Shown in pieces: positions 24,003 through 48,545 of a stretch of 64,000 nucleotides of DNA (its first letter is position 1; each line of letters begins with the position of its first letter). The stretch is from an uncultured bacterium (GTDB lineage Bacteria; Patescibacteriota; Minisyncoccia; UBA6257; 2-01-FULL-56-20), in NCBI GenBank assembly GCA_963719425.1, contig OY970382.1, positions 650,880-714,879 of the forward strand, read 5' to 3'. The position numbers and the translations under genes were made by a program. The notes under the pieces are model-generated. The model saw nothing but the letters and a program-made list of their open reading frames with translations, had not been told where the DNA came from and ran no database searches.

Positions 24003-24449
24003 ATGAAAATCACGGTTATCCTCTTCGTCTTTGTCTCGGCAGGACTGCTTTTTTCCGGTTACTTGAGCGCCGTGAAACTTTTCTCCGGTACCTGCGCATT
24101 CAACGAATCGTGCCCGTACTTTTTGGGCTATCCCGCCTGTTGGTACGGATTTTCCATGTACCTTTTTATGTTCATCGCGACGGGCATAGGACTCACACGG
24201 AAGCTACCCCTCTCCGCCCTGTGTAAAGCAGACGCGACGGTATCGCTCCTCGGCATCATATTCGCAGGCAGTTTCGTTATCCAAGAAATCGCGGCGGCGC
24301 AGGTTACGGGAACGCTTGGACTCTCCACCTGCGTGTATGGCCTCATTTTTTACATCGCCATTTTTGCGACCGCCCTTGTCGGCCTCGGAAAATCCCGTGC
24401 CGCCACGTCCCCCGCCACAGAACGCCCCGCCACAGAACACCATGTATGA
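24003..24449 (+). CDS. Hypothetical membrane protein (4 TM)
   Basis: 148 aa, hydrophobic, several Cys but no CxxC motif. Confidence 0.5.
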   Translation: MKITVILFVFVSAGLLFSGYLSAVKLFSGTCAFNESCPYFLGYPACWYGFSMYLFMFIATGIGLTRKLPLSALCKADATVSLLGIIFAGSFVIQEIAAAQVTGTLGLSTCVYGLIFYIAIFATALVGLGKSRAATSPATERPATEHHV

Positions 24450-31669: not shown

Positions 31670-32842
31670 TCAAAATTGCGCGGTCTGCGGGACGCCGAGT
31701 CCGGTCACGTAGTCGTAGCGCGCGCGGGCGTTGCAATAATATTTGCAGGTGCCGTTCGCGCCGCTCGTGATGTCGCGGAAATATTTGAGCGTGTCGCCGG
31801 ACGCCTTGTCTGAATAGAGTTTTTGCAGCGAAACAGAGAGGTTGAGCGCGTGGATTGCTGCCCATTGCGGCGCACCGGCAGAGGTGCCGCCGACCGTGTA
31901 CCAGCCGTTTTTTGATGAACCGGTGGTGCGATACACGACGAATCCGGATTTTGGATCCGCATTATAAGCCACGTCAGGAACCGCACGATGGCCGCTCGCT
32001 TTGGGAATGTTGTACGCTTTTTGATAATCAGGCTCCGGCTCGTAGGCACTCACGCCGCCGCCGCTCCCCGCCCACGCCGATTCCGAAATGAACGCACCAC
32101 TTTTGAAAAGTTCCAGCGACGTGCCGCCGACGCCCACCACGTTCGGCGACGCGGCTGGCCACTCCGCGCCCGCGCCGTCGTCGCCGGACGCCGCAAAGAA
32201 TACCGCCCCCGCCTTGCTCACAAGATGTGAATCAAGCGAAAGCTCTTCGGGAAATTCCTCGCCGCCCCAGCTCATGGAGATCGCGACCACATCCTTGCGC
32301 GATGCCGCATAATCAACCGCCGCAAGCAGGTTTGCCCCGCTCGCCGTTTTTGCTTCCACAAGCAAAATTTTTGCCTGCGGCGCTATCGCATGCGCCCACT
32401 CAACGTCAAGTGATTCCTCCAACGCCCACCCGCCATTCGTAGCCGTGGAACTCGCTATTTTATGTTTTTCCAAACAACCGTTCTTCGTCGTGCACGCGGG
32501 CAATCCGTAGGTTTTATTGAACACCGCGAGATTACTCTCAATGTTCGGGGCGTCGTATGCGTCAATAATGGCAATTGTCCCCTGGCCACCCGTGGACGGC
32601 AGATTATAAATCCTTTTGATCTCCGCGGGAGTCACGCCCGCGGGCGCTTTCTGCGCCGATCGGAAAATGTGAATCGGCGGCTTGCCTAAAAAGCCAGAGA
32701 AGTGATAGGTTGCCTCCGCCGTCTGCGACGGCGACAAAGCCAGCGACAAAACCGGCAGCCACACCCACGCCGCCCATATCGCCCACGCCCAACCGCCCGC
32801 AACCGCGACGCACAAAACGCCCGACAAAATTTTGTTTTTCAT
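31670..32842 (-). CDS. Secreted subtilase/sedolisin-like serine peptidase (S8/S53)
   Basis: Signal peptide, IAIIDAYD (catalytic Asp region), ASGDDGAG, GVGGTSLE (catalytic Ser region). Confidence 0.65.
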   Translation of the reverse strand: MKNKILSGVLCVAVAGGWAWAIWAAWVWLPVLSLALSPSQTAEATYHFSGFLGKPPIHIFRSAQKAPAGVTPAEIKRIYNLPSTGGQGTIAIIDAYDAPNIESNLAVFNKTYGLPACTTKNGCLEKHKIASSTATNGGWALEESLDVEWAHAIAPQAKILLVEAKTASGANLLAAVDYAASRKDVVAISMSWGGEEFPEELSLDSHLVSKAGAVFFAASGDDGAGAEWPAASPNVVGVGGTSLELFKSGAFISESAWAGSGGGVSAYEPEPDYQKAYNIPKASGHRAVPDVAYNADPKSGFVVYRTTGSSKNGWYTVGGTSAGAPQWAAIHALNLSVSLQKLYSDKASGDTLKYFRDITSGANGTCKYYCNARARYDYVTGLGVPQTAQF

Positions 32843-33481: not shown

Positions 33482-34903
33482 CTACCCCTTCGTGCTGCGG
33501 TCGTTCACGCTCACAAAACGGAATCCTTCCGAGCGCATGGCGGGGAGGATATAGGGCGTGTCGTCGTTCTCCATGGAAAGCGTGGGGCGCGCGGGTGAGA
33601 GGTGCGTGACGCGGCTCAAGGCCTGCGGCAAGCTTTCGTCAAAGCGAAGGTGCATGGTTGGACCGACGACCTCGCCGTCCTTCACAAGAAAGACGCCGTG
33701 GAGCGTGGTGCCGGTCGCGCTGCCGTCCTGCTGGTGCGTCGCACGGATATAGTGAAGCGTCGTGATCCAGAGCGCGGGCCTCTTTGACGCGCGGATCATC
33801 TCTTCCACACTTGAGGTACCGCCCTGGATGGCGAGATGCAGCGGCAGGGCGCCGAAACTGCGGGCGGAAGCGGGCAGCGCATGGCCGGTGGACACCGTGC
33901 CGTATTTTTTCGCGAGCGCGTTGTCGTATGCCACGCTTTTTGCGATACCGTTCTCCACCAACACAAGTTTTTGTTTTGGGAATCCTTCATAATCAAACGC
34001 CTGCGGGATGCCAAGCGGATTCAACGGGTCATCAACAATAGTGATGTTCTCCCCCATCACGCGCGTGCCGAGCTTGCCGGAGAAAAAGCTCGTGCCCTCC
34101 TGATATGCCTTCCCGTTCCACGCCTCCGCTTGTCCCGAAAAAATGGCGAGGAGTCCCGCCCAGCACGACGGCTCCATGATCACGTCAAACCGCTGTGGTC
34201 CAGGTTTCCCGTCAAAAGGATCAATGTACTTCCCGCCGTGCGCGGAAAGGTACTTCTTCTGGATCTCCAATTTCTTTTTCACGTCCTCCGCGACCGCAGC
34301 GACTCCGAATCCTTTGAGCGACTTCCCCGCCACCGTGCGATACGCGGAGATGGAGCGGTCCTTCGGATCAAAACCGAATATGGAAAGTTCGGTGCTTGTG
34401 GACTTCGCGCTCTGCAAGGTGCCCGCCGAATTTGCGAACGTAAGCTCGCCCACGCCTTGCGCGATCGCGCCGTCAAATATGAATCCCGCGGGCTCTATGA
34501 TGCCGTTTATTTCCTGAATGGTGTACACGAGTTTCCCGTCGTCCATTTGCGCGGTTTCCGCGTCGTAAAGGAGCGATTCAGGGACCGACGCTTTTGGAAA
34601 CGGCTTTGCGGGGATGAAAAGTTCCTCCTTTTCGCGCGGCAGGAGGCGCGCTTTCACGAACAAATTTTCTATCTCACCCGGGAGCGCATCCAATGAATCA
34701 CATGAGGCATTCACCCGCTTGCCGTCAATGATACAGCTCACCATAATGGAAATGCCCTCGCCTGCCGTCGGCTGATAACTCTCACCGTCCGTGATGCGTT
34801 TGAAGGAGCGCGAGCCCTGCACGACCATCACCTCCGTGAACGCCGCGCCGCGCCGTTTCGTATCCTCAAGAACTTTTGCGATTATTTCTTGTACGTTTTT
34901 CAT
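33482..34903 (-). CDS. TldD/PmbA-family metallopeptidase (peptidase U62)
   Basis: 473 aa, typical TldE/PmbA length. Adjacent and co-directional with the paralog 34900..36534 (4-bp overlap). Confidence 0.8.
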   Translation of the reverse strand: MKNVQEIIAKVLEDTKRRGAAFTEVMVVQGSRSFKRITDGESYQPTAGEGISIMVSCIIDGKRVNASCDSLDALPGEIENLFVKARLLPREKEELFIPAKPFPKASVPESLLYDAETAQMDDGKLVYTIQEINGIIEPAGFIFDGAIAQGVGELTFANSAGTLQSAKSTSTELSIFGFDPKDRSISAYRTVAGKSLKGFGVAAVAEDVKKKLEIQKKYLSAHGGKYIDPFDGKPGPQRFDVIMEPSCWAGLLAIFSGQAEAWNGKAYQEGTSFFSGKLGTRVMGENITIVDDPLNPLGIPQAFDYEGFPKQKLVLVENGIAKSVAYDNALAKKYGTVSTGHALPASARSFGALPLHLAIQGGTSSVEEMIRASKRPALWITTLHYIRATHQQDGSATGTTLHGVFLVKDGEVVGPTMHLRFDESLPQALSRVTHLSPARPTLSMENDDTPYILPAMRSEGFRFVSVNDRSTKG

Positions 34904-36534
34904 TTTTTTGCTGTCGCCGAGCGCGACGAGTCAACATTAATATTCTTGTACCAGGTGGGCGGCGTGCAGTGTCCGGTCGCCATGGTTTGCACTGGCCTCC
35001 CCTTGCCGCAATTGCCCACGCCGAGCAAGAGCGCGCTCTTCGCGTCCGCGGGCGTCACGCAATTCCGGAAGAATTGTTTCAGATTGTCGCCGCGGTAGAC
35101 CGGATTGCGCCGCGGCTCCCAAACCACCTTCCCGTTCCGCATCACCTTCTCCCACCCGGTCTCCGTGCCGAATTGGAAATCGCGGCGGTACGGATCAATG
35201 GACCAGCTCTTGTTGTTGCCGAAGCGGATCGTGCCCACGGGCACGCGATCCAGCATCTCTTCATAGGAAATTTCGCCGGGCAAGAGCGATATGTTGTTCA
35301 TGCGGATGAGCGGGAATGAGGCGTAACTTGACGCGCGCATGGCGCCGCTCGCCTCCGTGAAATAATTTTTGCCGAGCTTGCGGTTAAGCGACGGCGCACT
35401 CTCGCGGGAAACAAGAAGTCCCTTCCAAATGCCACAATCCACAAGGACGGTTCTTTTCGCAGGAATCCCTTCGTCATCGCACGCGAACGTCCCCACGCCG
35501 CCCTCGGTCAAACTGTCCGCAACAATGCTCACCGCATCGGAGCCGAACCGGAACGAGCCGATTTCCGGAAGCACGAGCGAGAACAAGCTGCCGCCGGAGA
35601 GCGACCACTCTTTGTCGTCCACGCGATCCCCTTCCGCGCCGTGCACCGTTTCGTGCGTCGCGTGCAGATTGTTCTGCTCCGGCATCAAAATGATGTCGCG
35701 GACGCCCGTCGGCGTCTCGGGCGCATCCAAAAACCGATCCGCCTCTTCCGCGACCCGTCCCGCATTCCCCACAAGATCAAAATCAAGCACCGCTTCCCAC
35801 CCTTTTTGCATAACCGACGGGAAGTGCGACGGATGCGAACAGGTCTGCTTGTCGGGATCGGCGTGGTCGCGCTCCGCCGTCGCCGTGACGCTTGCGCCGA
35901 CACGCATGAATGTCTGGTCGGCAAACACATTGTCGCTCGTGAACAGAATCTTTCTGAAGCGACGCGAATTTATATGCCCCTTCCGCAAAAACACGCGCTT
36001 ACTCACTTCGGCCATCGCGCGGTCCGCGCGCAAAAGCAGTTCCACCTTTTTGTCAACCGCGATGGAGAACGGATCAGTCTCGTATTTGGAGGTGTAACGA
36101 TGCTCCTTTCCGCGTTCACCGTCACTCAAAGAAAGTAACTCCACCGGATGCTTACGCGTTGCCGCATTCGCGCGGGCGTTCGCGACCGCGCGTTCAACGA
36201 CCTTCGCAATCTCCGCCTTGTCCAGCGTGTCGGTCGCGTAAAAACCCCACGCGCCATCGCAGAGCACCCGCACACCGAACCCGGCATGCGTGCCCGTGTT
36301 CACGGCAACCACTTCGCCGTTCTCCGTTTCCACCTCTTCAAAACGATCCTCGGGGTACACGCGTATATCCGCATAAGAGGCGCCCGCGCGCTTCGCGCGC
36401 TGAATCGCTTCCTCCGTGAACGAACGCCAATCTTCCATGGTGCTTTCCATTGTAAGAAAATCCAGCCCTAAACGCCAGAGTCCGTCTACGGCCCCTGGCA
36501 CCAATTTCCCCGCGCTTTTCGTATAAATATCCAA
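34900..36534 (-). CDS. TldD/PmbA-family metallopeptidase (TldD-like)
   Basis: 544 aa with conserved central Gly-rich region and C-terminal HxxxxH-like segment. First gene of the TldD/E pair. Confidence 0.8.
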   Translation of the reverse strand: MDIYTKSAGKLVPGAVDGLWRLGLDFLTMESTMEDWRSFTEEAIQRAKRAGASYADIRVYPEDRFEEVETENGEVVAVNTGTHAGFGVRVLCDGAWGFYATDTLDKAEIAKVVERAVANARANAATRKHPVELLSLSDGERGKEHRYTSKYETDPFSIAVDKKVELLLRADRAMAEVSKRVFLRKGHINSRRFRKILFTSDNVFADQTFMRVGASVTATAERDHADPDKQTCSHPSHFPSVMQKGWEAVLDFDLVGNAGRVAEEADRFLDAPETPTGVRDIILMPEQNNLHATHETVHGAEGDRVDDKEWSLSGGSLFSLVLPEIGSFRFGSDAVSIVADSLTEGGVGTFACDDEGIPAKRTVLVDCGIWKGLLVSRESAPSLNRKLGKNYFTEASGAMRASSYASFPLIRMNNISLLPGEISYEEMLDRVPVGTIRFGNNKSWSIDPYRRDFQFGTETGWEKVMRNGKVVWEPRRNPVYRGDNLKQFFRNCVTPADAKSALLLGVGNCGKGRPVQTMATGHCTPPTWYKNINVDSSRSATAKK

Positions 36535-37157
36535 TGAAAAAATATCTCCTGTCTTTCTTTCTCGTCATCGCGTTCGCGTTTTACGTTATGCTCAACAACC
36601 AGAGCTCGGTGGATGTCGGTCCCTCTGCGGGCGCACCGATAACTGCGAACACCGGTGCCAATACGAATAGCGTAGCGAACTTGCCCGCTGAGCCGACACA
36701 AAGGAACACTGGCAGCGGCACGACGGGCCAGACAGAGGACACGAGCCCGGAGGACGGAGGAACCGCAACGCCAGCACCTTCGCCCGCGCCGACACCGGCG
36801 ACGACACAAACGCCAACCCCGGCGCCAGTGCAGACACCCACCCCAACCCCGGCGCCGGCACAAACCGCCAGCATGTATAAAGACGGCTCGTACACCGGGA
36901 GCGTGGCTGATGCCTTCTACGGCAACGTTCAGGTGCAAGCCATCATTCAGAACAGAGCATTGAGCGATGTGCAGGTTCTGCAATACCCGAGCGACCGCAG
37001 CACTTCGCGCGAAATCAACGGCGCGGCGATGCCGCAGCTCGTGCAGGAAGCAATCCAGGCGCAGAGCGCAAACGTCAATATCGTATCGGGCGCCACGCAA
37101 TCAAGCGAGGCTTTCCGACAATCGCTCGCTTCGGCGCTTGTGGCGGCGAAGGCATAA
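36534..37157 (+). CDS. Membrane-anchored FMN-binding domain protein (predicted ApbE flavinylation substrate)
   Basis: N-terminal TM helix, Pro/Thr/Ala-rich linker, and an FMN_bind-like domain carrying the IVSGATQSS [S/T]GAT flavinylation motif. Confidence 0.7.
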   Translation: MKKYLLSFFLVIAFAFYVMLNNQSSVDVGPSAGAPITANTGANTNSVANLPAEPTQRNTGSGTTGQTEDTSPEDGGTATPAPSPAPTPATTQTPTPAPVQTPTPTPAPAQTASMYKDGSYTGSVADAFYGNVQVQAIIQNRALSDVQVLQYPSDRSTSREINGAAMPQLVQEAIQAQSANVNIVSGATQSSEAFRQSLASALVAAKA

Positions 37158-37170
37158 ACCGCACCGCACG

Positions 37171-37929
37171 ATGAAAGAAACACGCATCCTTATGGGCATG
37201 CCGGTTACGGTGGAGATCGTGGATGCGGCAGATGCAAAAACCGCAGAAGAAGCCGTGCGCGCAGTGTTCAATTATTTCAGATACGTAGACGAAAAATTCA
37301 GCACCTACAAAGACATGAGTGAGGTCACGGCGATCAATGAGGGACGCCTGCACGCACGCGACTGGAGTGAGGACATGAAAACGATCTTCGCGCTCGCGGA
37401 GGAGACGAAGCGGCTCACCGACGGCTATTTTGACATCCAGCGGCCGGACGGCACGTACGACCCGTCGGGCATAGTGAAGGGCTGGGCAATCCGGAATGCC
37501 GCGAATCTGATAGAAAAACGCGGCTTCAAAAATTTCTACGTGGATGCAGGCGGCGACATTCAAACGCACGGCACGAACGCGGAGGACAAAAAGTGGGCAG
37601 TGGGGATCAAAAATCCGTGGAATGAGAACGAAAGTGTGAAAGTGGTGTACGCAAGCGGCGAGGGCATCGCGACCTCGGGAATCTACATCCGCGGCGGGCA
37701 CATTTATAATCCGAAAACTGGCAGAGCGGCGGATGAGATCGTAAGTTTGACCGTTGTGGGGCCGGACGTCTACGAAGCGGACCGCTTCGCGACCGCCGCG
37801 TTCGCCATGGGCCGCGCGGGCATTCATTTCATAGAAAAGTTGGATGGCTTTGAGGGGTACCTGATAGATAAAAACAAAACGGCGACCATGACGAAAGGAT
37901 TTGAAAAATATGCTCAACGCAATAGATAG
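37171..37929 (+). CDS. apbE: FAD:protein FMN transferase (ApbE family)
   Basis: GYFDI…, DPSGIVKGWA, YVDAGGDI and ATSGIYIRGG ApbE motifs. Start moved to ATG 37171 just after the upstream stop. Confidence 0.8.
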   Translation: MKETRILMGMPVTVEIVDAADAKTAEEAVRAVFNYFRYVDEKFSTYKDMSEVTAINEGRLHARDWSEDMKTIFALAEETKRLTDGYFDIQRPDGTYDPSGIVKGWAIRNAANLIEKRGFKNFYVDAGGDIQTHGTNAEDKKWAVGIKNPWNENESVKVVYASGEGIATSGIYIRGGHIYNPKTGRAADEIVSLTVVGPDVYEADRFATAAFAMGRAGIHFIEKLDGFEGYLIDKNKTATMTKGFEKYAQRNR

Positions 37930-39442
37930 CTTCCTCAACCGGATCACGATGTACTGGCTCCTGCTCTATGTGCTCGCCGCGTCCCTTGTGATCGCCGCCG
38001 CGTTCGGCGCCCTGGGCATCCTTCCCTATTCGCCGGTCGCAATCGCGTTTTCAACCGCAGTGCTCCTCGCCGTCGCATGGATCACAAACCAGCTCTTCGC
38101 AAAAACCTTCGGCGCGCAACCGAACGTGGAATCCGTCTACATCACGGCGCTCATTTTGGCGCTCATCATCGCGCCCGTCATGCCTTCCGGCATCCCTGCC
38201 AATATGACAGGCATCTCGTTCCTTATTTGGGCGGCGGTGTGGGCAATGGCGTGCAAATACATGCTCGCAACCAGGAAAAAACATTTCTTTAACCCGGCGG
38301 CCTTCGCGGTCGCGCTCACCGCCCTCACCATCAATCAATCCGCGAATTGGTGGATTGGCGGAAATCTGCCCATGCTCGCCTTTGTTTTGATCGGCGGGTT
38401 TCTCATCGTGCGGAAGATACGACGCTTTGATCTCGTCCTTAGCTTTCTTACCGTTGGTCTTGCGACGGTCTTGCTCACAAACAGCGGCGAGAATCCGCTG
38501 ACCGCACTCCAACAGGTGTTCCTCCATACGCCGATCTTTTTCCTCGCAGCAGTGATGCTCACGGAACCATTGACAACACCTCCCACGCGCACGGGAAGAA
38601 TCGCCTACGGCGCGCTCGTCGGATTTCTCTTTGCGCCCGCAATCCATCTCGGCTCCATCTATTCCACGCCGGAGCTCGCGCTTCTTGTCGGCAACGTTTT
38701 TTCATATTTCATAAGCCCGAAAGGAAAATATATGTTCTCTCTCAAAAAGAAAGCCCAGACCGGTACCGACACGTACGACTTCGCGTTTGGAACGAAGGAG
38801 CCAATCTCTTTCCGCCCTGGCCAATATATGGAGTGGACTTTGGGGCATAAAAAAAGCGACAGCCGCGGCAACCGGCGCTACTTTACCATCGCCTCGTCGC
38901 CCACCGAGCCCGCACTGCACCTCGGCGTGAAATTTTACGAGCCCGCAAGCAGTTTCAAAAAGCGCATGCGTGCCCTGCAGCCGGGCGATGAAATCGTTGG
39001 CGGACAGCTTGCGGGAGATTTTGTGCTGCCGAAGGACGAACGCAAAAAACTTGTCTTCCTCGCCGGCGGCATTGGTATCACGCCCTTCCGCAGCATGGTC
39101 AAATATCTCGCGGATTGCGAAGAAAAACGGGACATTGTGCTCCTCTATTCAAACCGCACCGCGGACGAGATCGCCTACCGCGAAATTTTCGACGAGGCGG
39201 CGCACACGATCGGGCTCAAGACGATCTATGCCGTAACGAGTACGGAAGGGACGCTCCCGCCGAACGGGTACCGCGGACGCATTGATGCCGGCCTTATCGT
39301 GAAAACCATTCCCGATTATCGTGAGCGGACTTTTTACATTTCCGGAACGCGTGCGATGGTGACTTCGCTCCGCGAAACGCTCCGCGCGATGCATATTCCC
39401 GGCCGCCACATCAAAACCGACTTCTTCCCGGGGTTCGTATAG
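37901..39442 (+). CDS. Membrane oxidoreductase: polytopic N-terminal domain fused to ferredoxin-NADP reductase-like FAD/NAD(P)-binding domain
   Basis: About 290-aa multi-TM N-terminus, then RRYFTIASSP (RxYS FAD motif), GGQLAGDF, LAGGIGITPF (NAD(P) motif) and a C-terminal YISGTRAM region. Confidence 0.75.
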   Translation: MKNMLNAIDSFLNRITMYWLLLYVLAASLVIAAAFGALGILPYSPVAIAFSTAVLLAVAWITNQLFAKTFGAQPNVESVYITALILALIIAPVMPSGIPANMTGISFLIWAAVWAMACKYMLATRKKHFFNPAAFAVALTALTINQSANWWIGGNLPMLAFVLIGGFLIVRKIRRFDLVLSFLTVGLATVLLTNSGENPLTALQQVFLHTPIFFLAAVMLTEPLTTPPTRTGRIAYGALVGFLFAPAIHLGSIYSTPELALLVGNVFSYFISPKGKYMFSLKKKAQTGTDTYDFAFGTKEPISFRPGQYMEWTLGHKKSDSRGNRRYFTIASSPTEPALHLGVKFYEPASSFKKRMRALQPGDEIVGGQLAGDFVLPKDERKKLVFLAGGIGITPFRSMVKYLADCEEKRDIVLLYSNRTADEIAYREIFDEAAHTIGLKTIYAVTSTEGTLPPNGYRGRIDAGLIVKTIPDYRERTFYISGTRAMVTSLRETLRAMHIPGRHIKTDFFPGFV

Positions 39443-39500: not shown

Positions 39501-40652
39501 ATGCCCTACTGTGAACATTGTTTTCCGTTCCCGCCACGGCACCTGGAGAATTGGTTCAACGACCTTCTGGAACTCTTGTTCTATCCTCCTTTTGAACGCA
39601 TAACACCGTCTCTTTTCAATTCGCAGTTTTTTGAAAAGGCGATCACAGACTGCTTTGTTTTTGCCGGCATCGTGCGGAAGGAAAAAGAATTCCCGCTTAA
39701 AGAAATAAATCCTATCGCGGCGCTTTTCATACAACACGGCAGGGCAAGAGGAATAGAATTTGAAGCCCTGCGGGGACCCTTCGGCTACCTCACGTTTTTC
39801 CGGATGCGCATCGGAGGGCAGTCGTACGAATTTGACCGCCTCCCCGGCGCCTCGGCGAACTCCCTTGCCGCGGACGATAAATGGCACACGAAAAAAGCGC
39901 TCCGCAAGCTGGGCTATCCGGTCGCAGAAGGAATGCCGTTCTGGTGGTTCCAAAAGCGCAGGGCGGCACGCTACGCGGAAACACTGGGATACCCCGTCGT
40001 CGTAAAACCGCGCAAGGGATCATTGAGCCAGCACCTCTTCGTCGTAAAATGCGCTTCCGAGCTCCTGCCGGCGCTCCAGAGCGTCGCGCAATACTCGCCG
40101 GTATTCATAGTGGAAAAATTTGTTCCCAATGCCACGCTCTACCGCATCACAATCGTGGACGGCAAGAAAATGTTCGTCGTGAAGCGCTTCCCCGCGGAGG
40201 TCGAGGGCGACGGGAAAAGCACGCTCCGAGCGCTCGTCCGCAAAATAGAATTCAATCCCAAAAACCTTGACAAGGTCATTCTCAAGGAACAAAGAGTCAG
40301 TATTAGCTCGGTTATCGCAAAAGGAAAAAGGATATTCCTCCAGCGCAAAGCCATCCTCGCGCTCGGATCAAAGATAGAGAAGGTTCCTATCGCCGAAGTG
40401 CATCGCGACATTGTCGCCATGGGCCGCGCCGTTGCAAAACACTTCCGCTTGCCGCTCGTCGGCATTGACATCCTCCTTCGCAACCACACGCGGCCACTCA
40501 AGGATCAAACCGCCGCGATCCTGGAACTCAACACCCTCCCCAACATCCTCATGCACACGTTCAAGAAAAAGGGTAAAACGGAGAACGAAGTCGCCGACGC
40601 GCTCGTGGATCTCGCATTTGCACACTTCGACGAACAGACAAATCAGCGTTAG
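39501..40652 (+). CDS. ATP-grasp domain protein
   Basis: YPVVVKPRKGSLSQHLFVV…, VFIVEKFVPNATLYRITIV and an LNTLPN C-terminal loop, consistent with the ATP-grasp fold (RimK / cyanophycin-synthetase-like). Confidence 0.6.
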   Translation: MPYCEHCFPFPPRHLENWFNDLLELLFYPPFERITPSLFNSQFFEKAITDCFVFAGIVRKEKEFPLKEINPIAALFIQHGRARGIEFEALRGPFGYLTFFRMRIGGQSYEFDRLPGASANSLAADDKWHTKKALRKLGYPVAEGMPFWWFQKRRAARYAETLGYPVVVKPRKGSLSQHLFVVKCASELLPALQSVAQYSPVFIVEKFVPNATLYRITIVDGKKMFVVKRFPAEVEGDGKSTLRALVRKIEFNPKNLDKVILKEQRVSISSVIAKGKRIFLQRKAILALGSKIEKVPIAEVHRDIVAMGRAVAKHFRLPLVGIDILLRNHTRPLKDQTAAILELNTLPNILMHTFKKKGKTENEVADALVDLAFAHFDEQTNQR

Positions 40653-41203
40653 CGCTCGTCCGGAAATTCAAACATCGGCGCGTCAGAATCCATAATGATG
40701 CGACCGCCATCAAGCTCTTCGGAATCCCACTGAATTATCCAACGATGCCGTGGGTTCCGATTGCATTGGCATTTGGTCATCAAGTTTTCTGTAGACCCCC
40801 CGATGGGCTGCTTCCCTCCGCAGCCGGGATAGGGACAAAGGAAAGGCCTCTCAAGTGCTCTTTGCCTTTTAAGCTCTCCCTCTTTCCTGTCTGGTATTCT
40901 AAATTTCTCTCCAAATGAAAGTGGTTTTGGCTGCGGTGGGAACTCCCCCTCTTTCGCCAGATAATCCAAATACCCAGGAATTTCCGGCGGCCCTTCTTCG
41001 GGTTTCTCCACATGCGAACGCCTCGGCATACCCGCATTATAGTAAACATGGAATGTCCCGGCAACATCTTTGCAGATACGACCGCGCACGATCTTAGTTC
41101 TCAAAAGGAATCCTTTTGATTTTACCTTTATTTTCTTGCAAATATCTTCTGATTCTATCGTCTGCCTCTTCTCTAAACTCATCAATGATTTTCCTCCAAT
41201 CAC
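40649..41203 (-). CDS. Hypothetical protein (start uncertain)
   Basis: 184-aa ORF overlapping 41094..41642 by 110 nt; an internal Met at about 41029 is a more likely start. Confidence 0.4.
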   Translation of the reverse strand: MIGGKSLMSLEKRQTIESEDICKKIKVKSKGFLLRTKIVRGRICKDVAGTFHVYYNAGMPRRSHVEKPEEGPPEIPGYLDYLAKEGEFPPQPKPLSFGEKFRIPDRKEGELKRQRALERPFLCPYPGCGGKQPIGGSTENLMTKCQCNRNPRHRWIIQWDSEELDGGRIIMDSDAPMFEFPDER

Positions 41204-41642
41204 GAGAGAACCTATCCCGAACCGTGGGAACGTACCTCATAACAAAGTCTTGCAGGTCAGTACCTTCAATGGGATAGGTATCTACGAAATATAACCTATT
41301 CCCCTGATTATTCTTTTTATCTTGGCCGAAAATAAAATTTTCCCCTTTTAGATCGGGAGTTAAGAAGTGTGGTATCGGATCGCTGCCGTAGTAAAAAAGA
41401 TTGTTTATATAAGTATCAATGGCTCGCCTCAAGAATAACCTAAGCTGCTCGGCTACTTTTTCATCATATTTCAAATGATCTAAATTCTGCCCCTCGATCC
41501 TGTCCTGGATTATATACACGGTTTTTTTACCGCGCTCGTTTTTACCGACAACGAGTTGACTGTTCGGGATAAATTCCCCGAAGTTTTCTTTCAAAAAATC
41601 TAGGTTGGATTTGATATGGTCGGGGTCTGCCAACGGGTGCAC
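41094..41642 (-). CDS. Hypothetical protein
   Basis: 182-aa ORF, no recognisable motifs. Confidence 0.45.
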   Translation of the reverse strand: MHPLADPDHIKSNLDFLKENFGEFIPNSQLVVGKNERGKKTVYIIQDRIEGQNLDHLKYDEKVAEQLRLFLRRAIDTYINNLFYYGSDPIPHFLTPDLKGENFIFGQDKKNNQGNRLYFVDTYPIEGTDLQDFVMRYVPTVRDRFSRDWRKIIDEFREEADDRIRRYLQENKGKIKRIPFEN

Positions 41643-42054: not shown

Positions 42055-43794
42055 TTACGCTACTTCTGTCTGGTAACACCGTTCGCAATATACCATCTCG
42101 GGTTGGTCTGGAGCGTATGGGGTTTCAAACTCAACTGGACATCTGGCGGTATGCTCGTGCTTCTCTTTCGCACACATGCATTGCCGATGCCACAATTCCA
42201 AAGGATTGCGCATAGCGAACCGTTCGTAATGCCGGCAATTTGGACAAAGATGGGGTAGCGGTATTCCACGCGCACGATAGAACGCAAGTTCATTTGGTAT
42301 TATTTTGAATGCCGCGGTGCACTGATGCAAACACTTTTCTTTATGCTCACACTCAATGATGTCCTCAAGGATTTTGTCGCTCGCTTCGCCAATCAAATCG
42401 GGGATATCGATGTTTTTCCGCGTCACCGCGTAATCTCTGGCATCCGTGTCTCTCCACCGAAATCCTTTGGCTACGGCTTCATTTTTTGTCAGTGGGAAAT
42501 ATTGCTGCGTGAGCGATTCATTGTATGCATACGGGCAAAAATCAAGCGGGAAAAATTCTCCGTATTTCCACGCCCGACCCCGCCGGTCAACATACGGCAT
42601 CTCGTTCATGTGCGCGATAATCTTAGGAAGAAGTGCTTCATATTCTTCTTTTGAGTATTGTTTGTTGAGAATGCAATACTGTTTATTCCTTATCCCGATG
42701 CAGCCGAACAAGTTACTGCCGGAAGTTTGATTTTCGCAGTAAGCAATATTGTTGCCCTGAGGATTCGTGTTCATGATAAATTTTGCGTTCTGGCTAGGAG
42801 AACCGACGTTAATACCCTCGTAGATCAGCTCGCCCCCCGCAAATCCGAACGCGTCGTAGGTGTCTTTGGAGCGGAAAACTCGACAGGTATATTTCACATC
42901 TTCCAGATCAAATCCCTCAAATACCATTTTGCTGTTCTTCGCGTTCTCAATATCGTCTCCGGTGGCATTAGTAGTTTTCTCAAGATAGGCATATTTATGG
43001 ATCGCCCCTCGCTTCATTTTTTGGAATTCCGCTTTCAATGATTCACTTGCTGCGTGGCTTGCAAGATTAACTTCCTTTATTTTCTGTTCATATTCTCCTT
43101 TCGCGAGCTGTTGATTACGAAATACGTATTGCTTGTTGCGGAGATTACTACTCATAAAACAGCGTTGGCAATTTCTACAATCGAAAAGAAATGAGCATTG
43201 GATACAATCCGAGCAATCCAGAAGGTATTCTGATTGAAACACGCGAGAGCAACCTACATTTTCGTACACGAGCTCTCCTTTGTTTACGCTGTAAGAATCG
43301 TACACCTGGCGACTGCCAGATACGGTGCGCGAATAGTAGATCTCTTCGCTTTCAACAATAGAAAAAGAAAGGTATGTATTGTGGGCGTCTTTGAGATAGC
43401 TGGAATACGCTGCATTTAGGTTATTTCCATACTCCTGAAGCGGCAAAATGGGGACGGTCTTTTTGAGTTCCGCATATTGTTCAAAAAACGGTTTTTTGAA
43501 ATCATAATCCCTGCCGTACAACATGGGATCCCATTTGTCGCTCCACCAACAATCCCGGCAGTACACAACAAAATCTGACTCTGGAGCGTAGTGCGCAATG
43601 GTGCGCTTATGACAAAGATCGCAGTTTCTTGGGTAGAGAGTTCTCTCATTCCTAAAATAGAGTCGTCGTACGAGGCGACACTGAGGGCACCAGGTCGGCG
43701 GCGGCACTTTAATTTTCTCATAGAACGTGAAATCTTCCGGTTCTATTGTAAACTGGGTTTTGCAGTTCTGACACACCCTTATTTCCTGCTCCAT
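42055..43794 (-). CDS. Hypothetical Cys-rich protein with multiple CxxC pairs (zinc-ribbon-like)
   Basis: Start set at MEQEIRVCQNCKTQF (ATG 43794, preceded by GAGGT) because the 5' part of ORF 42055..44028 overlaps repeat copy 2. Repeated CxxC…CxxC modules throughout. Confidence 0.6.
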   Translation of the reverse strand: MEQEIRVCQNCKTQFTIEPEDFTFYEKIKVPPPTWCPQCRLVRRLYFRNERTLYPRNCDLCHKRTIAHYAPESDFVVYCRDCWWSDKWDPMLYGRDYDFKKPFFEQYAELKKTVPILPLQEYGNNLNAAYSSYLKDAHNTYLSFSIVESEEIYYSRTVSGSRQVYDSYSVNKGELVYENVGCSRVFQSEYLLDCSDCIQCSFLFDCRNCQRCFMSSNLRNKQYVFRNQQLAKGEYEQKIKEVNLASHAASESLKAEFQKMKRGAIHKYAYLEKTTNATGDDIENAKNSKMVFEGFDLEDVKYTCRVFRSKDTYDAFGFAGGELIYEGINVGSPSQNAKFIMNTNPQGNNIAYCENQTSGSNLFGCIGIRNKQYCILNKQYSKEEYEALLPKIIAHMNEMPYVDRRGRAWKYGEFFPLDFCPYAYNESLTQQYFPLTKNEAVAKGFRWRDTDARDYAVTRKNIDIPDLIGEASDKILEDIIECEHKEKCLHQCTAAFKIIPNELAFYRARGIPLPHLCPNCRHYERFAMRNPLELWHRQCMCAKEKHEHTARCPVEFETPYAPDQPEMVYCERCYQTEVA

Positions 43795-43879
43795 TACCTC
43801 AATTCTATCAGAACGAGAAATTGTAGGCCTTTTGGTCTGTCCGATACTCAAACTGGTCGCTCTGGCAGTGAGCCCATTA

Positions 43880-44105
43880 GCATAATTAACGAAAAGTTCG
43901 AATCCTGGCGCCCTGCTCGGATTCGTGACATAAACTGAGCTCCCGGAAGCATTGAAAAACCGAGGGGGAGCCGTCCCTCGAACGAGCGCACAATCCTGCG
44001 GAGGCGAACCGACTATCACTAGTCTCAAAAAAGTATTGAAAAAACCTACATTTTATTTTTCTGCTCTGCACTAATTCGGTTCGAATCTCGTCCAGGTCGT
44101 TCAAC
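43880..44105. repeat. Intergenic repeat family, copy 2 (~225 nt)
   Basis: Aligns with copies at 41805 and 48345. Causes the shared KFESWRPARIRD(I/V)N peptide in spurious ORFs 43591..43938 and 48171..48398. Confidence 0.75.
43951..43980 (-). terminator. Rho-independent-terminator-like hairpin within repeat copy 2
   Basis: Minus strand forms CGAGGG-ACGGCTCC-CCCTCG then GTTTTTC. Lies 125 nt downstream of the 44105 stop. Equivalent hairpins occur in the other two copies. Confidence 0.45.
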
Positions 44106-45877
44106 TACAACCCCGTAATCACCCCCTTCTGAATATCCCCTTGAAGCTGGGAGCCGCTTCTCTCGGAAAGATTATATAGCCATTCTATGGCTTGCGCAGT
44201 GGGCATAATGTTTGGCTGACTTCTTGCGCTCCGTACTGGAATGAGCTGGCAGGTAACTCCCGAATCACTGAATTGCAGCTCTACCATCAACTCATTTTGA
44301 GTATCATCGGAAAAATATTGATCGAAAATGAAATTGCCGAGTGAATAGAAAATCAACTTACCCTTATATTTTTCTATACCCTCGACAACGTGCGGATGTG
44401 CACCGATGATCATGTTGGCTCCTGCATCTATGAGATCGTGGGCAAGTGACTGTTGCTGTTGATTCTCCGTCAGGCTGTATTCGTCTCCCCAGTGCGCAAG
44501 GACGATAAGAAAAGCATCCGGCTGTTCTTGCTTAATGTTGGTTATTAGGCTGACAGCGTCTTGTTCCGGGAAATACGGATCGGTGCCATTGATGGCAATG
44601 AAGGCAAATTTCTTTCCGTTGATGAATTTGATGGATGTGTACTTTTTATCAACGCTGTACGGGTTGCCGACGGAGTCTATCGAATAATCTCCAAGATATT
44701 TTTGTGTGCTCAGATAGCCGCTTTCTCCAAGGTCATAAGAATGGTTGTTTGCAAGCGAGAGGACTTTGAAATTATTTTGCGCGAGAAGCTGGGCGACCTT
44801 CGGCGCGAAGGAAAATTGTATTGAAGTGCTCGAGTTTTGCGGTTGATTCGAAGTAATCGGACCTTCCAAATTGCCAATTACCGCATCAAACGCATTGAGC
44901 GATCCTGCAATCTTTTTAAATGGATAACTCTCGCCGTATCGGTTCATGAGCGTAGCAACATATCTTCCGAGCATAATATCTCCCACTGCGGCTACGGTAG
45001 CGGTGGAAGAAGTTGGCACATAAAATTGAGTTATATAACTCGTCGCGCTGGTCAATTTTTCCTTGGTGTAATCTTGAGAATTCTTATCGGCGATGATATT
45101 AGGCGCTGCCCCGAAAATATCTTTCTGCACCCGCATTTGGACGTATTGAGAAGCTATAGAATCGAGGTTGTCCGACTGGTTGAGAGAGAAAAGTTTTTCT
45201 GGGTCGTCGCTTTTAAGAACCGCAAGCGTCTGACGGTCTTTAGTATTGGCAACGGCCTTGGGAAGGTAGTGAGAAAAATCGGTGCTCTGTACGATAAGCG
45301 TGCGTTTATCAATATTTTGTTCTAAGAGATCCACAAATGCGCTGAGTTCGCTCTGCGTCGTACTCTCCTTGAGGGCGATTGCTACCACTGGCACGCCGGG
45401 GAAATAATGCGCCACGAACGGTAGCTCCGCCTCAATGCCATGTTCTCTGTAAAAAAAGTCTGCTGTGGAAACGAACGGCAATTGTGTCAGCTGATCGACA
45501 AAATGGGTGTCTGTTTCAAGTTCGCCCAAAACGGTGCTCAAGTTGCGCCGTGAAATCGAGATGTCGGTACTGCCAAGGTTGTAGTGATCCGGACTCAAAA
45601 TAATAATCCGATCATATGAGCCGCGGGAGGCTAGAAGGAATGCCTGGGCGATGAGGTCCGAGGCGAGAAGGTGATGCGGCACCGTGATGCCGGAAACTTT
45701 TTCATCAAGCGGAGTCCCTGTAGCATTTAAAATCGGCGTTAGGAAAATGGAGGTGTCCGTGAACTCTGGCGGTATCGGCCTTTCCGTATCGGCGTGTGAC
45801 GGGACGACAGACAGGACAAGTCCGACAAAAAACACCGAATAGAGAACAACTCTATATCGTCGAAGCACCTTCGTCAT
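44105..45877 (-). CDS. Secreted fusion protein: Memo-like domain + CapA/PGA_cap metallophosphoesterase-like domain
   Basis: Signal peptide MTKVLRRYRVVLYSVFFVGLVLSVVPSHA (start moved to ATG 45877). N-terminal region with GITVPHH…ILSPDHY (Memo-like). C-terminal VAAVGDIMLGRYV…HWG…GAHPHV (CapA-like). Confidence 0.65.
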   Translation of the reverse strand: MTKVLRRYRVVLYSVFFVGLVLSVVPSHADTERPIPPEFTDTSIFLTPILNATGTPLDEKVSGITVPHHLLASDLIAQAFLLASRGSYDRIIILSPDHYNLGSTDISISRRNLSTVLGELETDTHFVDQLTQLPFVSTADFFYREHGIEAELPFVAHYFPGVPVVAIALKESTTQSELSAFVDLLEQNIDKRTLIVQSTDFSHYLPKAVANTKDRQTLAVLKSDDPEKLFSLNQSDNLDSIASQYVQMRVQKDIFGAAPNIIADKNSQDYTKEKLTSATSYITQFYVPTSSTATVAAVGDIMLGRYVATLMNRYGESYPFKKIAGSLNAFDAVIGNLEGPITSNQPQNSSTSIQFSFAPKVAQLLAQNNFKVLSLANNHSYDLGESGYLSTQKYLGDYSIDSVGNPYSVDKKYTSIKFINGKKFAFIAINGTDPYFPEQDAVSLITNIKQEQPDAFLIVLAHWGDEYSLTENQQQQSLAHDLIDAGANMIIGAHPHVVEGIEKYKGKLIFYSLGNFIFDQYFSDDTQNELMVELQFSDSGVTCQLIPVRSARSQPNIMPTAQAIEWLYNLSERSGSQLQGDIQKGVITGL

Positions 45878-45878
45878 C

Positions 45879-48302
45879 CTACTTGACGATGAGTGATTGG
45901 TACCAGAAGTTTTTTGTCGGAAGTGAGGAGGTGACATTGTATACCCAATTCCTCCATTCCTCATCCGTCAGCCGTTGGCCTCCAAGGGGCTGCGTGAACT
46001 CGTAGTGATTGAACGCGAGTCCGACGACTATGCGGGGGTTATTCTCATCATTAACATAAGTCAGCATGAGATATGGATTTCCGTCACCCTCGTAGAGTAT
46101 CTGGTTAGTAAGCGCATCGGTATGGATGTCGGCGACAAGCGCAGGTTTCCCGGAATCCTTGTCCGGTTCGTCTTGACCGCCGAATGGCTGAGCCATGAAT
46201 GACAAGCTGGTCGTACGGAGTTTTTCGTAATCATCGTCGCTGATTGGTGCCCCATTCATTTCCTTTTCGGCCAACCCATCATAGAAACCTACAATACTCT
46301 TAAAGTCATCGAGCCGCGAGAATGCCGCACTATTTTGAAATAGATTGTATTGGTTGTAGAAATCCTCTGTTCGATTGATGAGTCCTTGAAGTTTTTTCCA
46401 AAAAGCGACATTAGGTTCGACGAACCCTCGAACCAATGGCTGGATCGTGCACTCTTCCTCCCCGCCTCCTTTTTCGGCATAGCTCTGTTTGGCGTACAAA
46501 AGTGTGTCGTGTTTTAGCTCGGTGTACGATCCAAGGAATGTTTGAATTTGTTTATCGGAAAAATTCGGCGATTGCATATAGAGCGGATAGCTGCTGCCAT
46601 ATTGTCCGGTAAGCGTCGAGAGTACATTGAGCCACGCGCTGCCGAGCGAATTTTGCCATTCGTCGGCGGTTATCGCCTGAAGCTGTCCAGATTTTTGGTC
46701 AAGAGCCGCCATGAACCCCGCGATATCGGCTTGGGTAAAACCGCTATTCAAGAGAAACTGCGCTGTGTCGCTTTGCGCTTGCGTGTCCCCGAAAGCCGCT
46801 GGCACAAACAGCGCGGAGGGCATTGATGGCAATCTGGTCTGCGTTGCTTCTTGTCCAGCGGTAAGATCGTTCAAAATCCATGCGTCAAAGGTGAATTTTT
46901 GTCCGAAGATTCTGAATCCCAGAGATTGTTTCAATAGATCAGCCTTCGTTAACGATCCAATATTTGGGTTCACAACAACGCTAGAAAATATCTTAGGGAG
47001 CTTCAATTGACCGATGTTGCTATCCAAAGTGCTAAGGGTTGCGGCGCTCGCCAGATTCTGAGGCGTAGAGTTGAATCCGTTTCCTAGAACGTTGTTAAGG
47101 AAACTTTGCCATTCGGTATATGTGATATCGTCGCTCTGGCCAGCGTAAAAACTTGTCACATCGCTAATGTGTTGCCAGGATGAAAGCGGTACATTGCCAT
47201 CGCTGCTCGTCGCCAAAAAGAGATTGGTGAGAAGATTGATATCTTCCACGCCGATGTCTTTCCCGAGGAAATAGCTGTTGCGGCCAAGGTACATCATCGC
47301 TCTGAAGTACGCACGCAGGGCGGAGTTCTTCGTATAATGGCTTCTTGGCGTGAATTGTGTATAGTCACTTTGCAAATCGTCTTTATACTGACCCCAGAGG
47401 GGCGAGGACGTTATATCGCTTGCAGCGTAAATGAGTTGAAGTTCCGAAAGAGCTTCGCTCGCCAAGTCGGGAGTGAGGAATGAAGAGTATTTTACGAAAA
47501 TCGTTTTCGCGTTGGCAAAACTGTCTATGGTTTGGTCTTGAGTAAGATAGGCGTTTTCGGCATCAGGACCAGAGAAATAGTCAGGTTCCGGCGGGCTTTG
47601 ATTTTCAAGTAGAACCCGAGCGACCGTAAGTTGCGCGAGAATATTCTGATATCGCGCTGCAACATCGGGGGTGGCCTGAGTTATTTCTTGCGCTACGTTG
47701 CCGGTAATCTCGGTCAAAAACTTTTCGAGAGCTGGAGAAAGATCGGTTTGCTCAAGCTCCGCGAGCGAGAGATCGAAGTATTTGTGGTAAGCGTGTAGAA
47801 CGATGTCGGGGGTCACGAACACAGCGTCCTCGGGCGCTCGATAACAGGGGTCATAAGGCCCACCAATTCTATCAAATGCATCGAGCATGCTATCGAAACT
47901 GTAATCAGATACCTGGCTCACAGGCAAGAGCAAAAACTTATTCTGTTCTAAATAATCAGCTTGTGCCTGAGAAAGTTGTAAGTTGTATGCAGTTGCGACG
48001 TTGTCAAGGTTATACGCTTTCCCCACAGTACTCACGCTCGTGAACAAGGCTGATGCTGTTGAGGACTGCGTCGCCATTGATGATGTGACCGCTTCGGTAG
48101 TGGTTGCACTTATGGTAGAAGATGGCTGGATTACAGAAAGTGATTGAGCGGTTGAAGACTCCGTTGTCTGTTGGGTTGGAGTGGTCGGGGAAATGTTTGG
48201 TCTTTTCATAAACACAAAGCCAGCCCCGATTATCGCTATCAGCACAACGGCGACAATGATGCCAATAAGAACTCCGGAGAAGCCGCCCCTCCTAGGGATC
48301 AT
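45879..48302 (-). CDS. Large hypothetical membrane-anchored protein (N-terminal TM, Ser/Thr-rich linker, ~650-aa extracytoplasmic domain)
   Basis: 807-aa ORF with N-terminal GVLIGIIVAVVLIAIIGAGFVF helix followed by a T/S/Q-rich linker. Confidence 0.6.
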   Translation of the reverse strand: MIPRRGGFSGVLIGIIVAVVLIAIIGAGFVFMKRPNISPTTPTQQTTESSTAQSLSVIQPSSTISATTTEAVTSSMATQSSTASALFTSVSTVGKAYNLDNVATAYNLQLSQAQADYLEQNKFLLLPVSQVSDYSFDSMLDAFDRIGGPYDPCYRAPEDAVFVTPDIVLHAYHKYFDLSLAELEQTDLSPALEKFLTEITGNVAQEITQATPDVAARYQNILAQLTVARVLLENQSPPEPDYFSGPDAENAYLTQDQTIDSFANAKTIFVKYSSFLTPDLASEALSELQLIYAASDITSSPLWGQYKDDLQSDYTQFTPRSHYTKNSALRAYFRAMMYLGRNSYFLGKDIGVEDINLLTNLFLATSSDGNVPLSSWQHISDVTSFYAGQSDDITYTEWQSFLNNVLGNGFNSTPQNLASAATLSTLDSNIGQLKLPKIFSSVVVNPNIGSLTKADLLKQSLGFRIFGQKFTFDAWILNDLTAGQEATQTRLPSMPSALFVPAAFGDTQAQSDTAQFLLNSGFTQADIAGFMAALDQKSGQLQAITADEWQNSLGSAWLNVLSTLTGQYGSSYPLYMQSPNFSDKQIQTFLGSYTELKHDTLLYAKQSYAEKGGGEEECTIQPLVRGFVEPNVAFWKKLQGLINRTEDFYNQYNLFQNSAAFSRLDDFKSIVGFYDGLAEKEMNGAPISDDDYEKLRTTSLSFMAQPFGGQDEPDKDSGKPALVADIHTDALTNQILYEGDGNPYLMLTYVNDENNPRIVVGLAFNHYEFTQPLGGQRLTDEEWRNWVYNVTSSLPTKNFWYQSLIVK

Positions 48303-48344: not shown

Positions 48345-48458
48345 TCCTATAAAAAGTTCGAATCATGGCGCCCTGCTCGGATCCGTGACGTAAACTGATT
48401 CTCCGCGAGCATTGGAAAATATAGGGGGAACTGTCCCGCGAGCGGGTGCACACTCCCG
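48345..48458. repeat. Intergenic repeat family, copy 3 (partial, ~115 nt) abutting the 3' end of tRNA-Ser
   Basis: AAAAGTTCGAATCATGGCGCCCTGCTCGGATCCGTGAC…GGGGGAACTGTCCCGCGAGCGGGTGCACACTCCCGCGG aligns with the first halves of copies 1 and 2. Confidence 0.7.
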
Positions 48459-48545
48459 CGGAAGGGGCGAGATTCGAACTCGCGGTACCATTTCTGGTAC
48501 ACGATCTTTCCAGGATCGCCAGTTAAACCACTCCTGCACCCTTCC
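48459..48545 (-). tRNA. tRNA-Ser (anticodon GGA), class II with long variable arm
   Basis: Minus strand folds as GGAAGGG-TG-CAG/D-loop/CTG-G-CGATC-CTGGAAA-GATCG-variable arm GTACCAGAAATGGTAC-GCGAG-TTCGAAT-CTCGC-CCCTTCC-G. Anticodon loop CTGGAAA gives GGA. No encoded CCA. Confidence 0.85.

Follow-up and report, generated by a model that had tools for sequence, protein, structure and literature searches.

Members of the Candidate Phyla Radiation (CPR, or Patescibacteria) possess genomes of about 0.9 Mb and almost no recognised membrane redox machinery, and a locus in one such genome raises the question of how cells of this kind might pass electrons from NAD(P)H to the outside. The locus lies in a 64,000-nucleotide stretch, hereafter the window, of contig OY970382.1 (GenBank assembly GCA_963719425.1, positions 650,880 to 714,879) from an uncultured bacterium of the Minisyncoccia. 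On its + strand, the open reading frame (ORF) listing places three tightly packed, co-directional genes at 36534..39442, which encode an FMN-binding (FMN_bind) protein, an ApbE-family flavin transferase and a fusion of an RnfD/NqrB-like membrane domain to a ferredoxin reductase (FNR)-type module. A preliminary description had named the products of these genes as an anchored FMN-binding protein with a Pro/Thr linker and an SGAT motif, an ApbE encoded next to it, and a polytopic membrane protein fused to a FAD/NAD(P) reductase module, and all three identifications stand. Our analysis confirmed that the gene trio is real, with corrected start codons for ApbE and the fusion. Because the order FMN_bind, ApbE, fusion is retained in most of 80 sampled species-level loci, a synteny that spans two phyla, Patescibacteria and Chloroflexota, the trio is not a chance co-occurrence.

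The locus corresponds to a kind of system that has already been described. Méheust 2021 (eLife, PMC8238504) applied the name 'NQR/RNF-like' to a fusion of PF03116 and PF00175 found inside a flavinylation gene cluster and reported 127 such clusters, chiefly from Actinobacteria and CPR. Huang 2024 (PMC10979944) modelled a Ktedonobacter complex with AlphaFold-multimer and proposed that the covalent flavin of the partner protein samples a vacant site. The first study delimits the class by an N-terminal PF03116 and a C-terminal PF00175 domain on one protein, and the fusion carries this pair; ApbE (PF02424) and/or FMN_bind (PF04205) is to lie within five genes, and here both are encoded immediately upstream on the same strand. 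The second study adds that the flavinylated Thr of NqrB and RnfD is not conserved, and the corresponding DGISQAT loop of RsxD is missing from the fusion. With these features the trio almost certainly belongs to the Nqr/Rnf-like class, and the locus is a correct re-discovery of an uncharacterised class, known from bioinformatics and AlphaFold modelling only (PMC8238504; PMC10979944), rather than a new kind. Nothing essential differs from the published system: the defining fusion, the adjoining ApbE and FMN_bind protein and the presence in CPR are the same, as are the proposed one-way electron passage that starts at NAD(P)H and ends on an extracytosolic flavin and the loss of the RnfD/NqrB flavinylation site. 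What is added here is a wider range, an ApbE without a leader, and an Asn in place of Asp in the flavinylation motif of about half of the members. We consider that the trio probably constitutes a two-subunit Nqr/Rnf-like transmembrane electron-export module together with its maturation enzyme, ApbE.

The membrane-reductase fusion and its FMN_bind partner

The third gene (37910..39442, +) encodes a protein of 510 aa. The program-called ORF starts at TTG 37901, whereas ATG 37910 corresponds to the start of the orthologues and of an identical public 510-aa protein from an 887,956-bp contig; an AGGA sequence lies 10 nt upstream of this ATG and merely 1 nt upstream of the TTG. ATG 37910 is therefore the most likely start, and the overlap between ApbE and the fusion becomes 20 nt instead of the 29 nt given earlier. 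Residues 1-270 (37910..38719) make up a ten-helix membrane domain, for which a relationship to RnfD and NqrB had been put forward as a point to check. Pfam NQR2_RnfD_RnfE (PF03116) matches residues 151-268 at 44.6 bits against a cut-off of 27.7, a profile of 46 membrane-domain sequences finds Azotobacter RnfD (8ahx_D) at E 7.6e-6, and hhalign pairs the domain with E. coli RsxD at 95% probability, with the profile search of PDB sequences and hhalign aligning only the C-terminal half of the domain to RnfD. An AlphaFold (AF2) model of residues 1-275 (pLDDT 89.2, pTM 0.87) was compared with the PDB by Foldseek, and the 15 best matches were all RnfD or NqrB chains, including 7zc6_D (TMq 0.70), 9eri_D, 8ahx_D and 7xk3_B; all later matches had E>0.1. 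A search with the full-length model (pLDDT 84.2, pTM 0.77) returned FNR-type matches only in its top 50, and the RnfD/NqrB chains were seen after the membrane domain had been modelled separately. By Pfam, hhalign and predicted fold, the membrane domain of the fusion is thus identified as an RnfD/NqrB homologue.

Relative to RnfD, this domain is shortened at one telling position. The RsxD motifs NPFNPAM and GGVWLLWQKAIRW correspond to FFNPAAF and IGGFLIVRKIRRF in the fusion, and the loop between them is about 75 residues long in RsxD, where it includes DGISQATPLD and carries the flavinylated Thr187. In the fusion about 17 residues (among them NQSANWWIGGN) remain between the motifs, as placed by eye against the RsxD sequence rather than by residue-level structural alignment; the short outward loop between TM5 and TM6, QSANWWIGGN, is encoded at 38336..38365 (+). 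Because the loop that carries the flavinylated Thr in RsxD is reduced, this motif comparison indicates that the membrane domain's own covalent-FMN site is gone, in agreement with Huang 2024. Among homologues the loop conforms to Q-S-A-[S/T]-W-W with A145, W147 and W148 invariant, and position 146 (38345..38347) is S or T in 67 of 71 sequences (94%) and in 40/46, and N in the window; the residue here may contact a flavin, or the position may be a vestigial or cryptic site of flavinylation. The membrane domain contains one Cys and three His (125, 206 and 246), of which only His125 is invariant, and since there is no conserved Cys/His set, iron-sulphur or bis-haem carriers are unlikely within it.

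Charge distribution gives the predicted topology of the fusion. Across 71 fusions, the predicted inward loops carry on average 1.3, 0.45, 2.2, 3.3, 1.1 and 4.9 K+R, and the alternate, outward loops 0.04, 0.01, 0.01, 0.79 and 0.03. The protein is predicted to have ten transmembrane helices with both termini inside, which places the FNR module in the cytoplasm; the same K/R bias puts the TM5-6 loop on the outer face, where NqrB and RnfD hold FMN.

The cytoplasmic FNR-type module for FAD and NAD(P)H binding comprises residues 274-510 (38729..39439, +). Its C-terminal part matches NAD_binding_1 (PF00175; E 1.6e-14, 54.9 bits against a cut-off of 22), FAD_binding_6 is weakly matched between PF03116 and PF00175, and a profile of the module matches flavohemoglobin and FAD domains of NqrF at E 1e-14. 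Foldseek matches of this part (flavohemoglobin, GcoB, NqrF and SpNOX) point in the same direction. The FNR signatures RRYFTIASS, GGIGITP, ISGTRAM and a C-terminal FFPGF are all present, with key residues invariant in 71 homologues, and scans of the Pfam/NCBIfam type detected no ferredoxin (2Fe-2S) domain in the module.

The first gene (36534..37157, +) encodes an NqrC/RnfG-like subunit of 207 aa. After MKK, a 17-residue hydrophobic signal-anchor helix (residues 4-20, YLLSFFLVIAFAFYVML, 36543..36593; hydropathy 2.44) leads into a low-complexity linker rich in Thr, Pro and Ala (residues 23-115, 36600..36878), whose 93 residues include T20, P17 and A14 and only one K+R. The pattern MKK + F/Y-LLS...F..Y is kept in orthologues, and because the anchor has neither a Cys nor an AxA site it is probably uncleaved. 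The FMN_bind domain follows at residues 130-202 (36921..37139); its starting point varies from residue 26 to 152 among orthologues. In Pfam, FMN_bind scores 23.5-26 bits (gathering cut-off 22), and with a profile of 56 orthologues the solved structure of an FMN-binding domain, 8p2a_A, is found at E 2.3e-21. Across the 80 loci, 77 FMN_bind ORFs lie upstream of the fusion gene.

The sequence IVSGATQSS occupies residues 183-191, and Thr188 (codon 37095..37097) is the predicted attachment site for the FMN phosphoryl group. The published ApbE target motif is D-x-x-[ST]-G-A-[ST] (PMC12052999), and the window's N-I-V-S-G-A-T188 fits it apart from N for D at the first position. S-G-A is retained in 70-71 of 71 orthologues, with Thr (66) or Ser (5) as the next residue. 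At the first position 33 of the 71 have D, and the Asp described as 'strictly conserved' is Asn in 31, including N182 of the window protein; only minor effects have been reported for a D to A change at this residue (PMC12052999). With respect to topology, the residues preceding the anchor in 68 FMN_bind orthologues number 7.7 on average and include 2.7 K/R, compared with 1.0 K/R in the 20 residues after it, and the Chloroflexota anchors are preceded by N tails of 15-23 residues with several K/R. Because of this K/R-rich N flank and charge-poor C flank, the protein is predicted to be N-in/C-out, with its FMN domain outside.

A leaderless ApbE and the place of flavinylation

The second gene (37171..37929, +) encodes an ApbE-family FAD:protein FMN transferase of 252 aa without a signal peptide, which matches Pfam ApbE (PF02424) at E 9.7e-41. 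The program-called ORF begins at 36967; since the alignments of all orthologues begin with the Met at 37171 (MKETRILMGMPV), this position, 13 nt past the stop of gene 1, is most likely the true start. The protein contains DPSG/KGWA, ATSG, GGHIYNP and ADRFATAA, which we take to be the FAD, Mg2+ and catalytic-His motifs of ApbE, and its catalytic motifs are intact.

The missing leader is a property of the whole set of loci. In 66/66 comparable loci the ApbE alignment begins at residue 1 or 2 of the protein encoded in the window; in 33 of these the preceding in-frame stop lies at most 14 codons upstream of the start, and in the remaining ones we found no convincing signal-like hydrophobic segment in-frame upstream (maximum 15-residue hydropathy 1.74). 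Where long in-frame upstream stretches do occur, they overlap the FMN_bind gene in another frame. A search among 1.84 billion cluster representatives gave a similar picture, in that the nearest 150 ApbE relatives are almost all 235-270 aa long and have a domain that begins no later than about residue 15, and the nearest leaderless relatives include high-GC actinobacterial types. A fusion of FMN_bind and ApbE by read-through or frameshift, as an export route for ApbE, was rejected: the frames differ in the window, and representatives with long N-terminal extensions proved to be either miscalled ORFs through the FMN_bind gene (P0168 and P0178) or actinobacterial proteins with non-hydrophobic extensions. 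The parts of the text of Méheust 2021 (PMC8238504) and Huang 2024 (PMC10979944) cited here contain no mention of a leaderless ApbE that we found.

This raises the question of where flavinylation occurs. A leaderless ApbE set against an FMN domain on the outside implies flavinylation before export, an unknown route for ApbE, or a wrong topology prediction. Cytosolic ApbEs are known, and these serve cytoplasmic targets; ApbE needs no more than a seven-residue motif at the end of a protein (PMC12052999), which makes flavinylation before export conceivable. A speculative joint reading, which we regard as improbable, would have the leaderless ApbE attach the flavin in the cytoplasm at the C-terminal SGAT of the unfolded chain, which would then be exported to yield a self-sufficient membrane outlet for electrons, free of quinones and cytochromes, in CPR and Chloroflexota cells, with the tethered FMN plugging the emptied RnfD-like site and ion coupling possible. 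Were this true, extracytoplasmic flavoproteins could mature by a new route, and organisms believed not to respire would possess a minimal respiration-like device.

Proposed electron path, known relatives and rival explanations

The arrangement of the three proteins suggests how electrons could leave the cell, and we infer both the direction of flow and the carriers within the membrane domain from it. NAD(P)H would reduce the FAD of the cytoplasmic FNR module, and electrons would then traverse the membrane through the ten-helix RnfD/NqrB-like domain, probably by way of a non-covalent flavin, as NqrB uses riboflavin. They would arrive at the FMN that ApbE is predicted to attach to Thr188 of the FMN_bind protein, which its N-terminal helix and a flexible Thr/Pro linker of about 90 residues would tether on the outer face. 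The covalent FMN of this partner would most likely dock in the site vacated by the lost RnfD loop and then swing out to reduce an extracytoplasmic acceptor. A path from NAD(P)H through FAD and one or more flavins of the RnfD-like domain to the tethered T188-FMN and an external acceptor is, in our judgement, the likely one. The preliminary description had likewise placed NAD(P)H oxidation inside and the flavinylated acceptor outside; the predicted topologies, with K/R bias assigning the FNR module to the cytoplasm and the FMN_bind domain to the outside, agree with this model, which had already been published. Of the two findings that the preliminary description named as refuting its reading, a cytoplasmic FMN-binding domain and a membrane domain of an unrelated transporter family with a siderophore-interacting reductase, neither came out of the analysis.

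Comparison with characterised machines sets the trio apart from each of them. With Rnf (RnfABCDGE; PDB 7zc6, 8ahx and 9eri) it shares the RnfD fold (TMq 0.65-0.70), the need for ApbE and a partner that, like RnfG, has an FMN_bind domain and an N-terminal helix; it differs in having no RnfA, B, C or E, the fused FNR module replacing RnfC for NAD(P)H entry, and in having neither the covalent-FMN loop of RnfD nor a ferredoxin side, so that electron flow cannot be semicircular. With Na+-NQR (NqrA-F; PDB 7xk3 and 8a1t) it has in common an NqrB-like fold, an NqrF-related FAD/NADH module and an NqrC-style FMN protein, whereas NqrA, D and E, the 2Fe-2S domain and a site of the NqrB T236 type are absent from the trio, in which no quinone step is evident. 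In line with these differences, scores of the trio proteins against the NqrF, NqrB and RnfD equivalog models are far under their cut-offs. A phmmer search of the 64-kb window with E. coli RsxA, B, C, E and G found no RnfA, B, C, E or G, and RsxD matches only the fusion; the trio is not a conventional Rnf or Nqr operon.

The preliminary description had also compared the cluster to the Listeria FLEET system (Ndh2, DmkA/B, EetA/B, PplA and FmnA/B). The likeness to Nqr/Rnf-derived modules, which it named as well, is borne out, and the resemblance to FLEET is one of analogy only: the logic of cytoplasmic NADH, a membrane step and an ApbE-flavinylated surface protein is the same, whereas the two systems use unrelated proteins in the membrane, the trio gives no sign of a quinone step, and the FmnB lipoprotein of Listeria contrasts with the leaderless ApbE of the trio. 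The PplA model scores 17.5 bits against a cut-off of 325, and among the genes beside the trio there is no Ndh2- or EetAB-like gene. Finally, prokaryotic NOX and ferric-reductase enzymes (SpNOX, PDB 8qt6) also join a transmembrane domain to a cytoplasmic FNR-type dehydrogenase on one polypeptide and send electrons outward, but theirs is a six-helix bis-haem domain, in place of which the fusion has an RnfD/NqrB-like transmembrane domain with, presumably, flavin carriers.

Several points weigh against an outward path ending on an external flavin. The window ApbE is leaderless and part of a large clade of leaderless proteins of ~240-270 aa, and the FMN_bind domain that is its target is predicted outside; the topologies rest on hydropathy and the positive-inside rule; we found no experimental work on the Nqr/Rnf-like system in the literature; and clustering of the flanking ORFs at the 80 loci yielded no conserved neighbour that points to an acceptor. 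The first of these points would be accommodated if the FMN_bind domain were itself cytoplasmic and flavinylated there by the leaderless ApbE, like the cytoplasmic ApbE-dependent fumarate reductase of Klebsiella, and served either as an intracellular relay between FNR module and membrane domain or as a membrane-tethered cytoplasmic reductase. That ApbE lacks a signal peptide in all 66 loci, that almost all of its nearest 150 cluster representatives are leaderless too, and that cytosolic ApbEs with cytoplasmic targets are known (PMC12052999) all speak for such an arrangement, which we nevertheless hold to be unlikely: the MKK start, the basic N tails of the Chloroflexota proteins and the charge-poor C flank strongly favour N-in/C-out, the Thr/Pro/Ala linker, whose 93 residues include a single K+R, resembles linkers of envelope proteins, and the RnfD/NqrB flavin site modelled for the partner is on the outer face (PMC10979944, and established Nqr/Rnf structures).

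An outward path that also moves ions would be a minimal pump, in which electron flow is coupled to cation export or is reversed by an ion gradient. The fold is that of RnfD and NqrB chains, core subunits of the Na+/H+-translocating Rnf and Nqr complexes, and the acidic residues E74, D174, E219 and E255, inside helices or at their edges, show little or no variation; yet RnfA/E and NqrD/E, which known pumps need for coupling, are absent from the window, and the conserved acidic residues are partly family-wide motifs (TEP here is TDP in RsxD), which leaves ion pumping quite improbable. NqrB forms the quinone site of Na+-NQR, and were that site kept the trio could act as an NAD(P)H:quinone reductase that supplies or draws on a scavenged quinone pool, shared with the class 2, quinone-dependent dihydroorotate dehydrogenase (DHODH) encoded 12 kb upstream at 24316..25536. 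Such an enzyme would leave the strict co-inheritance of a flavinylated outer-face partner and ApbE unexplained, the window offers no evidence of quinone biosynthesis, and we give this possibility very little credence. As for a fusion of some unrelated transporter with a siderophore-interacting or ferric reductase, the combination of a transmembrane domain with an FNR module does resemble NOX and ferric reductases such as SpNOX, itself among the fold matches of the FNR part; but the membrane domain matches RnfD/NqrB alone by Pfam and by fold, no Ferric_reduct (PF01794) match appears in the Pfam scan of the fusion, and no bis-His set is conserved. We regard this last explanation as excluded. Export of electrons from NAD(P)H to a tethered outer FMN therefore remains the reading that we prefer.

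Distribution, neighbouring genes and significance

Database relatives of the fusion number more than 7,800. The top 120 are all about 500 aa long and, in the precomputed Pfam list, all carry PF00175 and most PF03116 as well; the named ones among these 120 are Minisyncoccia or Paceibacterota. The closest relatives, with 85-87% identity, come from metagenome-assembled genomes of Minisyncoccia, which include an 898,885-bp chromosome. In GTDB the fusion is encoded at no fewer than 539 species-level loci, of which the 80 retrieved for the synteny analysis cover many Patescibacteria lineages and Chloroflexota. The system is thus far wider than the 127 published genomes, with at least 539 species-level loci that include Chloroflexota.

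Only two flanking associations recur among the loci. In 11-13 of the 80, genes for an extracytoplasmic function (ECF)-type sigma factor (Sigma70_r2 + r4_2) and for a small membrane protein that may be an anti-sigma factor lie divergently beside the module, about 0.5-2 kb upstream on the opposite strand (L013, L015, L016, L018, L019, L022, L027, L028, L031, L039 and L056). A second small FMN_bind gene adjoins the sigma pair in L013 and L031, and many of the ECF loci have no ApbE within 6 kb. These arrangements hint at envelope-stress regulation of the module in some lineages. The other association, confined to the closest relatives, is an ATP-grasp gene directly downstream (39501..40652, +), whose product is like the ligase core of cyanophycin synthetase (TIGR02068, E 1e-39, with a score far under the cut-off); as it is syntenic in the nine closest loci only, it probably reflects lineage synteny and is not part of the module.

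The remaining surroundings are varied. Immediately upstream and divergent lie genes for TldD/PmbA-family metalloproteases (473 and 544 aa; 33482..36534, -), which are not conserved at this place elsewhere. The 406-aa DHODH (+) scores as the quinone-dependent class 2 enzyme (NF003652, 343 bits against a cut-off of 267), which is odd for a CPR genome of ~0.9 Mb that is expected to be without quinone biosynthesis. On the - strand, a 390-aa ORF (31670..32842) matches no Pfam family and, in NCBIfam, only a subtilisin-like model, faintly; two ORFs of 184 and 182 aa with a 110-nt overlap (40649..41642) have no Pfam match; a 657-aa Cys-rich protein with many CxxC pairs (42055..44028) has only a weak treble-clef zinc-finger match; and 44105..48302 encodes two proteins, the first (619 aa) with a Memo-like domain and a PGA_cap domain of capsule synthesis, the next (807 aa) a DUF3160 protein (E 2e-132). 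ARAGORN predicts a tRNA-Ser(GGA) at 48458..48545 (-), for which there is no Rfam tRNA match at gathering thresholds; at these thresholds an Rfam scan of the whole window found no riboswitch or other family, and a scan for promoters and terminators gave counts equal to those of shuffled sequence.

Together, the strictly leaderless ApbE, the clean loss of the RnfD loop and the occurrence in at least 539 species-level genomes provide testable handles on a complex that is as yet uncharacterised. Because CPR cells combine small genomes with scarce membrane redox machinery, a widely conserved flavin module leading from NAD(P)H to the outside could plausibly serve them to balance redox, to reduce iron or to interact with a host.

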